Source: Escherichia phage Pu-Krd-SF3. Taken from it: DNA of 64,000 nucleotides. The stretch lies in sequence record PQ249397; one strand, given 5' to 3'. The notes below the pieces were generated by a model. That model saw nothing but the letters and a program-made list of their open reading frames with translations, did no database searches and was not told the DNA's origin. Position numbers and translations under genes: made by a program. This document shows, in pieces, positions 4,548 to 5,192 of the stretch. Each line of letters begins with the position of its first letter. The first letter of the stretch is position 1.

Positions 4548-5105
4548 TCATTCTAGTAAATCCCAAAGATCTACGCTATTTCTTTTTGACTTTTCTCGGT
4601 TAGATTCCCAAGTGATTATTTCTAAATTTTTTACGCTTGCTATAATTTCCGGCGGAATTAAATTATCAAATCCATATTTGATAGATACTTTATGATCGAG
4701 TTGATAAGCACCTTCTACACCGCACACTCCTATTTTATCAGCATTCGGCCATTTTGACCAAATTTTTCTTATTTTAGCTGACTTAGTTATAGAATGAACT
4801 CTACTAGCATATAATGCAAACTCTTTTCTTTTACCAGTCCATCGAGGATGTTTATCGCCTCTTTGCCATGGTCTGCTTATTCCGGATTGAACTTCCGAAT
4901 TTTTAATAGCAACTTGTTTAATGCTGCATTTTCTACACGCATGTGTGGGTGTTCTATTTAAAAGCTGAATGCTTCTACTAAATTTAATACCGCACAAATC
5001 ACATTTAGCGTCAACTATTTTATTACTATTCTTTGGCATTAATTCTATTGGAACAGATACTGTATCATGATATGATACTTCATATCCTAGAATTGCCGAC
5101 CACAT
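4548..5105 (-). CDS. HNH-family endonuclease with Cys-rich zinc-finger-like region (putative freestanding homing endonuclease)
   Basis: ORF track 4548-5192; contains CDLCG...CRKC and HNH-like LDHKVSIKYGFDN...NLEIITWESNREK; start set at Met 30 (5103-5105) because first 29 codons cover the gene 18 downstream hairpin. Confidence 0.65.
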   Translation of the reverse strand: MWSAILGYEVSYHDTVSVPIELMPKNSNKIVDAKCDLCGIKFSRSIQLLNRTPTHACRKCSIKQVAIKNSEVQSGISRPWQRGDKHPRWTGKRKEFALYASRVHSITKSAKIRKIWSKWPNADKIGVCGVEGAYQLDHKVSIKYGFDNLIPPEIIASVKNLEIITWESNREKSKRNSVDLWDLLE

Positions 5106-5170
5106 TTTTGAATGATTTCTTGGTTTTATTGTAACAAACTTAGAAATAATCACTTGTTTCCTCGAGAATA

Positions 5171-5184
5171 GGGGCCGAAGCCCC
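5171..5184 (-). other. GGGGC(UUCG)GCCCC tetraloop hairpin immediately downstream of gene 18
   Basis: Plus-strand ggggccgaagcccc; no U-tract follows, so more likely an RNA-stability/processing hairpin than a terminator. Confidence 0.5.
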
Positions 5185-5192
5185 ACAATCAA

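Follow-up and report, generated by a model that had tools for sequence, protein, structure and literature searches.

Freestanding endonuclease genes are well known in T-even phages. The closest described systems are MobA to MobE, I-TevIII and Hef of T4, whose genes stand free between conserved genes, are patchily distributed among close relatives and encode an HNH-type motif (reviewed in PMC2988022). The gene considered here is like them in these respects. It is an open reading frame (ORF) on the minus strand of Escherichia phage Pu-Krd-SF3 (record PQ249397), in a stretch of 64,000 nucleotides (nt) that is called the window below, and it lies between gene 18 (tail sheath) and gene 19 (tail tube). 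It differs from the T4 Mob genes in that no sequence relationship to them is detectable and in its N-terminal module, a Cys4 zinc ribbon; an hhalign comparison of the family profile with MobD, the only Mob protein compared, gave a probability of 0.3% (E 0.2) and showed no relationship. T6 carries the same gene as ORF19.1, with 98% amino-acid (aa) identity, the same GTG start, the same 18/19 position and no difference of substance. GenBank has had ORF19.1 for decades without a name. Petrov et al. (2010; PMC2993671) count a single “other HNH” in T6, also unnamed, and a literature search for ORF19.1 and for gp18/gp19 together with HNH found no paper characterising the gene.

The gene itself is therefore of low novelty. 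What deserves a second look is the conservation of its position, the exchange of its modules and, above all, a predicted long-range mRNA helix that covers the start codon and covaries between lineages. Taken together, we think it probable (roughly 0.6) that this is a freestanding, probably homing, HNH endonuclease gene under tight translational control.

The gene, its product and its distribution

An earlier note on this DNA, made from the letters of the window, placed an HNH endonuclease gene at 4548-5192 between genes 18 and 19. The ORF list does contain a maximal minus-strand ORF at these positions, and the order on that strand is gene 18, the ORF ending at 4548, gene 19 and gene 20. The ORF is beyond chance, because its homologs form many clusters (about 46 at 90% identity in a word-indexed search; 6,928 at 50% identity with E <= 0.001, and 113 with E <= 1e-30, in an exhaustive profile search), because sampled Tequatrovirus copies are intact (12 of 12) and because the ratio of nonsynonymous to synonymous polymorphism (pN/pS) is low, at 0.05 and 0.14 for the T6-type and HY-type alleles described below. 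No coding was found on the opposite strand in the ORF list, and an Rfam search of the locus gave no match. The start at 5192 did not stand: that position is the first in-frame TTG past a stop, adjoins the gene 18 stop codon and lies upstream of a UUCG hairpin. The true start is most likely the GTG at 5151-5153, which is taken as such because of the GAGG upstream of it, the annotation of T6 ORF19.1 and the N-termini of all homologs, which align as M/V-I-I-S/T-K... and match the window from this codon on. Residue numbers below refer to the 201-aa protein that begins there.

The motifs that the note quoted are all present in this protein: CDLCG supplies C51 and C54, CRKC supplies C73 and C76, LDHKVSIKYGFDN contains D153 and H154, and WESNREK contains N185 and K188. 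In a family alignment of 36 sequences, C51, C54, C73, D153, H154, N176, L177, W182, N185, R186 and K188 are invariant, and C76 is present in at least 90% of rows; the catalytic His and Asn, whose presence the note had left to a proper alignment, are thus kept across the family. The residues follow the HNH superfamily pattern, with D153-H154 as general base, N176-L177 as structural Asn and N185 as metal ligand, and in the predicted fold, as in the superfamily, a beta-hairpin leads into the helix of the metal site. An AlphaFold model of the protein (predicted local distance difference test, pLDDT, 88.7) has HNH endonucleases as its top structural matches, with modest scores; the recurrent or best matches of the C-terminal domain are Gme HNH (4h9d), GVE2 HNH (5h0o), I-HmuI (1u3e) and T5 SciA (9qgx). 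Foldseek against the PDB returned nothing significant. The Pfam models HNH, HNH_3 and HNH_4 stayed below their cut-offs, with E values of 0.004-0.07 in a few members and otherwise weak matches to treble-clef zinc fingers; 13 of 30 family members matched DUF4379 weakly, and a profile search of PDB sequences gave zinc-ribbon matches only, among them mS66. NCBIfam and PADLOC searches of the protein gave no match, and it falls in PHROG 5104, labelled “unknown function”. Residue pattern and modelled fold together make membership of the HNH endonuclease family well supported. The C-terminal nuclease-like module is also found in the DUF7487 (PF24308) proteins of uncultured phages, but these have other, longer N-terminal regions and mostly other genomic contexts. 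Public annotation of the family is inconsistent: the gene is unannotated in RB9 and Aplg8, a “holin” in SYGD1 and ZCEC14, a “putative head morphogenesis protein” in the T6 RefSeq record and a “type II restriction endonuclease” in Klebsiella Roth phages, and in S16 only a truncated C-terminal ORF (gp100.1) is annotated.

The boundaries of the insertion are exact. That genes 18 and 19 are neighbours in T4, as the note had it, is borne out by the junction alignment, in which T4 has only 7-9 nt where the window has 643 nt. The inserted cassette consists of a hairpin, a Shine-Dalgarno (SD) sequence and the ORF, whose own TGA forms the 3′ edge, and it sits precisely between the gene 18 stop codon and the hairpin and late promoter that precede gene 19. 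The flanking UUCG hairpin and gene 19 late promoter named in the note were both found, and a further hairpin and a further promoter are present as well (Table 1): the hairpin just past gene 18 arrived with the insert, while that at 4523-4540 is the native post-gene-18 hairpin of T4. The equivalent cassette of the S16 lineage follows directly on the final codon of gene 18. Its hairpin is GGGCC-UUCG-GGCCC, and its ORF opens with GTG-ATT-ATC and closes with a TGA that replaces the one ending gene 18 in the empty relative, so that boundaries are exact in two genera (Tequatrovirus and the S16 lineage). A search for intrinsic terminators on the coding strand of the locus called none, including after gene 18.

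The window belongs to Tequatrovirus and is 100% identical to Escherichia phage Pu-Krd-SF4 over the 1.9 kb tested. Junction queries of about 499 Tequatrovirus records found 117 occupied and 382 empty sites, the latter including T4 and T2, and presence and absence alternate among phages whose flanks are 98-100% identical. The same polymorphism is seen in other genera (S16 against L014 and L015; L018 against L017 and L019, where L numbers denote our loci). The sheath gene is followed directly by a homolog, 31-44% identical, in Acinetobacter phage Melin, Salmonella phage S16, Klebsiella phage Roth21 and Sinorhizobium phage phiM12. In IMG/VR the family profile picked out 193 relatives, of which 80 loci were kept; about 55 of the 80 have gp18, the ORF and gp19 in order on one strand, and about 25 match through the C-terminal nuclease module only, in unrelated contexts, some with DUF7487. 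Two IMG/VR contigs (L069, L115) have the homolog next to gp18 on the opposite strand. Further metagenomic loci from an exact protein look-up were in gp18-ORF-gp19 order in 12 of 12 cases. Loci with the ORF at this junction include phages in which the C-terminal part of gp18 is only 45-50% identical to that of the window, and over this whole range the sequence KPARSINYI(T/Q)LNF near the gp18 C-terminus, encoded just upstream of the insert, is conserved; the stretch that encodes it would suit a homing site. The note had spoken of an invasion of a conserved late operon. The exact insert relative to T4 and the patchiness agree with this, but the gene is neither fresh nor peculiar to this phage, given T6 and the homologs across the superfamily. 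The note had also allowed for reference T-even genomes carrying the same ORF, and here the references divide: T6 has it in the same place, whereas the sites in T4 and T2 are empty.

Two alleles circulate in Tequatrovirus, a T6 type (about 74 records) and an HY03/RB9 or HY type (about 43). They are 91% identical in nucleotides over the first 33 nt, only 31% identical in amino acids over residues 12-126, and similar again in the C-terminal module, and they differ in this way inside flanks that are 98-100% identical. The HY-type ORF is 63-64% identical to the Klebsiella and S16 copies but only 50% identical to the T6 type. Pairwise identity matrices of 23 loci reveal incongruence between ORF and flanks in both directions: L052 and L055 have ORFs 90% identical in flanks of 82-88%, and L038 and L018 have flanks 92-94% identical around ORFs of 33%. 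Overall, ORF identity and flank identity are correlated (Spearman 0.59-0.66). Two features expected of a homing gene are thus present, namely presence/absence with precise boundaries and a phylogeny incongruent with the flanks. Judged from sequence comparison, the mobility data show a conserved, exchangeable cassette and not nuclease-driven homing.

A predicted long-range helix over the start codon

A repeat search found a 26-nt inverted repeat within the cassette, one arm of which contains the start codon and the other, about 500 nt downstream, the codons of the catalytic motif. In the mRNA the 5′ arm reads CAA-GUG-AUU-AUU-UCU-AAG-UUU-GUU-AC and the 3′ arm GUA-AAA-AAU-UUA-GAA-AUA-AUC-ACU-UG, and the two are predicted to form a helix of 24 Watson-Crick pairs, one G-U pair and one mismatch, with a duplex energy of -30 kcal/mol. 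In folds of the whole message (730-760 nt) the three bases of the start codon pair with the distant arm (P = 1.00), and most of the SD region is paired (P 0.96-0.99). The earlier account had left out both the start codon proposed here and the helix that would bury it. The idea that the local UUCG hairpin hides the SD was rejected, since folding shows that the SD is not covered by it. Across the window's 54 other ORFs, the strongest pairing of a start region with its own ORF is -17.9 kcal/mol at the median and -27.0 kcal/mol at the extreme, against -37.7 for this gene. The ORF at that extreme is a 378-aa plus-strand ORF at 50869-52005, with its partner 216 nt downstream.

The predicted helix is conserved. 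It persists in 13 of the 18 lineages, even where ORF identity falls to about 43%, at predicted energies of -18 to -38 kcal/mol (-23 or stronger in 12), and 12 of these 13 have a GTG start. When each lineage was recoded 300 times with the same protein and codon usage, at most 1 of 300 recodings was equally stable in 11 of the 13. Within a 19-bp core compared in 15 sequences, 91.6% of positions are paired, compared with 33-47% when the partner is slid, and four pairs have changed on both sides; 0-1 of 500 shuffles reach the observed values. Among the compensatory changes, S16 and P0023 (P numbers denote lineages of the family) combine ATT to ATC with GAA to GAG, and P0010 and P0033 combine A to T in the base before the start with ACT to ACA. 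P0016 changes TCT to GAT (S4D) together with GAA to TCT (E178S), a pair of coupled amino-acid changes that keeps three base pairs. Three lineages with an ATG start (P0008, P0021 and P0030) are without the helix to the NLEIITW codons; there the SD, spacer, ATG and first codons pair with the SIKYGFDNHI codons, 45 nt further upstream (-35 kcal/mol), and L127 and L130 differ in this alternative helix by compensatory changes.

The simplest reading of the helix is translational throttling of a potentially harmful nuclease, and so long a duplex could also be a substrate for RNase III. A search of the literature on long-range sequestration of the ribosome-binding site (RBS) in homing endonuclease genes found no report of such a long-range form.

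Table 1. Features in and around the cassette, in their order along the minus strand (positions are those of the 64,000-nt window).
Feature	Position	Strand	Details
Gene 18 late promoter	7201-7208	minus	
Gene 18 (tail sheath)	5193-7172	minus	upstream flank; stop TAA 5193-5195
Hypervariable patch in gene 18	5241-5277	minus	almost wholly synonymous; codons ARSINYIQLNFVA
Late-promoter-like sequence in the patch	5264-5271	minus	TATAAATT
Insert relative to T4	4549-5191	minus	643 nt in place of 7 nt (T4 record 100517-100523)
Cassette-borne UUCG hairpin	5171-5184	minus	GGGGC-UUCG-GCCCC; just past gene 18 stop; no U tract
Shine-Dalgarno sequence	5160-5163	minus	GAGG, 6 nt 5′ of GTG
5′ arm of predicted helix	5131-5156	minus	CAA, GTG start and codons 2-8 (VIISKFV)
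ORF (T6 ORF19.1 family)	4548-5153	minus	201 aa; GTG most likely start; Cys4 zinc ribbon and HNH (H-N-N)
Cys4 zinc ribbon	4926-5003	minus	C51, C54, C73, C76; treble-clef-like; presumed DNA-binding module
C-terminal module	4551-4775	minus	aa 127-201; 88% nt identity with HY03/RB9-type allele
Beta-beta-alpha-metal core	4590-4706	minus	Y150-K188: D153, H154, N176, N185, K188
Core codons	4692-4694; 4626-4628; 4599-4601	minus	H154; N176; N185
3′ arm of predicted helix	4609-4634	minus	codons V174-W182, with catalytic N176-L-E-I-I-T-W
Native junction module, also in T4	4523-4540; 4514-4521	minus	UUCG hairpin abutting late promoter TATAAATA
Second late promoter	4453-4460	minus	TATAAATA, in front of gene 19
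Gene 19 (tail tube)	3947-4438	minus	downstream flank

Small differences surround the native junction module. Relative to T4, T6 and HY03, the window has an extra TA at 4461-4462, upstream of the gene 19 late promoter (ATATATAAATA versus ATATAAATA), and a G-to-A change at 4532, by which one G-U pair in the native hairpin becomes A-U. Empty 18/19 spacers in several T4-like genera (loci L009-L023) have a GC-rich hairpin abutting a late-promoter-like ATAAATA, and the unit is often doubled. These spacers resemble the terminator-promoter modules of T4-like early regions (PeSLs; PMC2839356, PMC4122927), but with a late promoter.

Proposed homing and its alternatives

If the gene is a homing endonuclease, its product would be a two-domain, site-specific DNA endonuclease, with the zinc ribbon as the presumed recognition module and the HNH domain as the presumed catalytic module. 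When an ORF-carrying and an ORF-less phage infect the same cell, the enzyme would nick or cut the empty allele close to the 18/19 junction, and recombinational repair from the ORF-carrying genome would copy the cassette together with neighbouring markers. Read-through of the gene 18 transcript from its late promoter would reach the ORF, with no terminator called in between; the gene lies inside a very strongly transcribed late operon. Its output would be throttled by the GTG start and the long-range helix, and translation could begin mainly while the transcript is still growing and has yet to reach the 3′ arm.

A bolder form of this reading, which we hold tentatively and at somewhat under even odds, is that a single endonuclease lineage has been tied to one site, directly past the extremely conserved stretch that encodes the sheath C-terminus, throughout the T4-like radiation, swapping N-terminal recognition modules on a constant catalytic module and carrying a built-in long-range translational lock. 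Because the 3′ arm is the coding sequence of the catalytic motif, such a lock would be hard to lose without changing the enzyme. If this is true, amino acids at the N-terminus and in the active-site motif would co-evolve through RNA pairing. Expression would be limited to nascent transcripts, or else the duplex of 26-35 bp would be an RNase III-type processing site, at which cleavage would detach the nuclease message from those of genes 18 and 19.

Several points weigh against these readings. The long-range helix is a prediction, and in its core G-U cells (7) are only slightly above A-C cells (4), so the strand on which the pairing matters is not settled by that count. Intact, constrained copies and deep conservation of position fit a useful resident gene, and a purely selfish element that cycles through decay would not obviously show them. 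Finally, a candidate target or immunity site, a hypervariable patch in gene 18, did not hold up as strictly coupled to the ORF. T4 and the window differ at 39 places in the last 880 nt of gene 18, and 14 of these fall within 37 nt (binomial P 3e-10); the patch has four haplotypes, named after T4, ECO4, HY03 and T6, among Tequatroviruses that are otherwise 97-99% identical, and in a sample of 23 phages all T6-type ORFs went with one haplotype and all HY-type ORFs with another. A database-wide BLAST with chimeric junctions led to rejection of strict coupling: many empty sites have the HY03 patch (T2, teqhal, HY01 and others), other empty sites have a near-T6 patch (RB14, vB_EcoM_112, G28), and the T4 patch accompanies an intact HY-type ORF in sb1, sb3 and Ec_YwIITB1. 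ORF-carrying genomes of several genera recode I-N-Y as ATA-AAT-TAT, which yields TATAAATT; a rule that carriers always do so was likewise rejected, as only about half of the lineages follow it. The patch itself is real, and it shows linkage to the cassette alleles, but it does not point to a target; its origin may lie in an old recombination patch, in DNA-level selection or in an embedded TATAAATT promoter.

The main rival is a resident accessory nuclease that helps the phage, by excluding co-infecting relatives or by processing DNA near the packaging genes, and that has spread by ordinary homologous recombination through the flanks. GVE2 HNH and HK97 gp74-type proteins work with terminase, and Gme HNH and GVE2 HNH, two of the best structural matches, are nicking HNH enzymes of small size from prophages or phages. 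The gene is part of the block that runs from terminase (g17) to portal (g20), it keeps its place after gp18 down to the most divergent gp18 C-termini compared (45-50% identity), and its pN/pS of 0.05 and uniformly intact sampled copies would be natural for a gene of use to the phage. Yet T4 and T2, among the 382 Tequatroviruses that do without it, package DNA normally, and the ORF does not resemble the terminase-associated HK97 gp74 type, small proteins of one HNH domain whose genes adjoin terminase or portal and which cos phages need for packaging; it is a two-domain protein of 201 aa, encoded between sheath and tube and dispensable in 77% of the genus. A separate zinc ribbon is what would be expected for site recognition, two interchangeable N-terminal modules occur on one catalytic module, and the allele tree is incongruent with the flanks. 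The apparently tight throttling suits a toxic selfish nuclease better than a packaging cofactor. On balance a resident nuclease seems unlikely.

Vertical descent of an ancestral T4-like gene with many losses, in which case the apparent insertion in the window would be a retention, is harder still to sustain. It would account for the occupation of the same junction in Tequatrovirus, Gelderlandvirus, Klebsiella, Acinetobacter and Serratia-type phages, phiM12 and many metagenomic T4-likes, and for the correlation between ORF and flank identity. The local incongruence speaks against it (ORFs at 50% in flanks at 99% within one genus, and ORFs at 90% in flanks at 82-88% elsewhere), as does the mosaic of alleles. 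Empty sites of one genus, moreover, share an identical junction, which independent deletions would not give, although recombination with a phage whose site is empty would. We regard this explanation as improbable. A zinc-finger DNA- or RNA-binding regulator with a non-cutting HNH-like domain, acting for instance on its own gene or on the late expression of gene 19, would fit the failure of any HNH model to reach threshold and the position just upstream of the gene 19 promoters, but it is very improbable indeed, as the invariant general-base His with its preceding Asp, both Asn and the Lys would be hard to explain without catalysis.

Implications and known translational locks

If a translationally locked homing endonuclease were confirmed, a family of about 7,000 sequence clusters that Pfam HNH models miss could be named and annotated. 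The locus would offer a natural system for how a nuclease gene persists at one site over deep divergence while recognition modules are exchanged, and it would show how a toxic gene can live in a heavily transcribed late operon without disturbing it, through a long-range mRNA helix whose base pairing is intertwined with the constraints on the encoded protein. Marker exclusion would also be likely at the 18/19 junction, both in crosses and in engineered T-even phages.

Other endonuclease genes and candidate internal-protein genes were noticed as well. At about 24930 the window lacks some 557 nt of T4 (record 80217-80775) covering segC, a GIY-YIG homing endonuclease gene that lies between genes 5.1 and 5.3, which makes segC another presence/absence difference in endonucleases between the window and T4. 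S16 (L007 6611-6618) has a further gene annotated as an “intron-like DNA endonuclease”, gp104.1, directly after the head scaffolding gene in the same late block. Four plus-strand ORFs of the window (34398-34859, 34978-35544, 31261-31545 and 31606-31914) begin MKTY(A/Q)EF..., and the stretches that hold them, one of which is a 1.2-kb extra segment, have no alignment to T4. We take this beginning to be the capsid-targeting signature of T-even internal proteins, and the ORFs look like variant or additional internal-protein genes.

Long-distance translational locks are known from the fold-back inhibition of hok mRNA and from the long-distance interaction of MS2. Among phage endonuclease genes, mobE is described as having a local RBS hairpin (Gibb and Edgell, 2009, as cited in PMC2993671), and this hairpin and the sequestration of the I-TevI RBS likewise bury the SD and start codon so that a toxic or dosage-sensitive product is made sparingly. 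The likeness to these four systems concerns how the predicted lock may work and not membership of a class. It differs from them in that the partner lies about 500 nt downstream within the ORF itself and is the coding sequence of the catalytic motif. It differs further in having two alternative partner sites, used by different lineages, and in that amino-acid changes at both arms co-vary.

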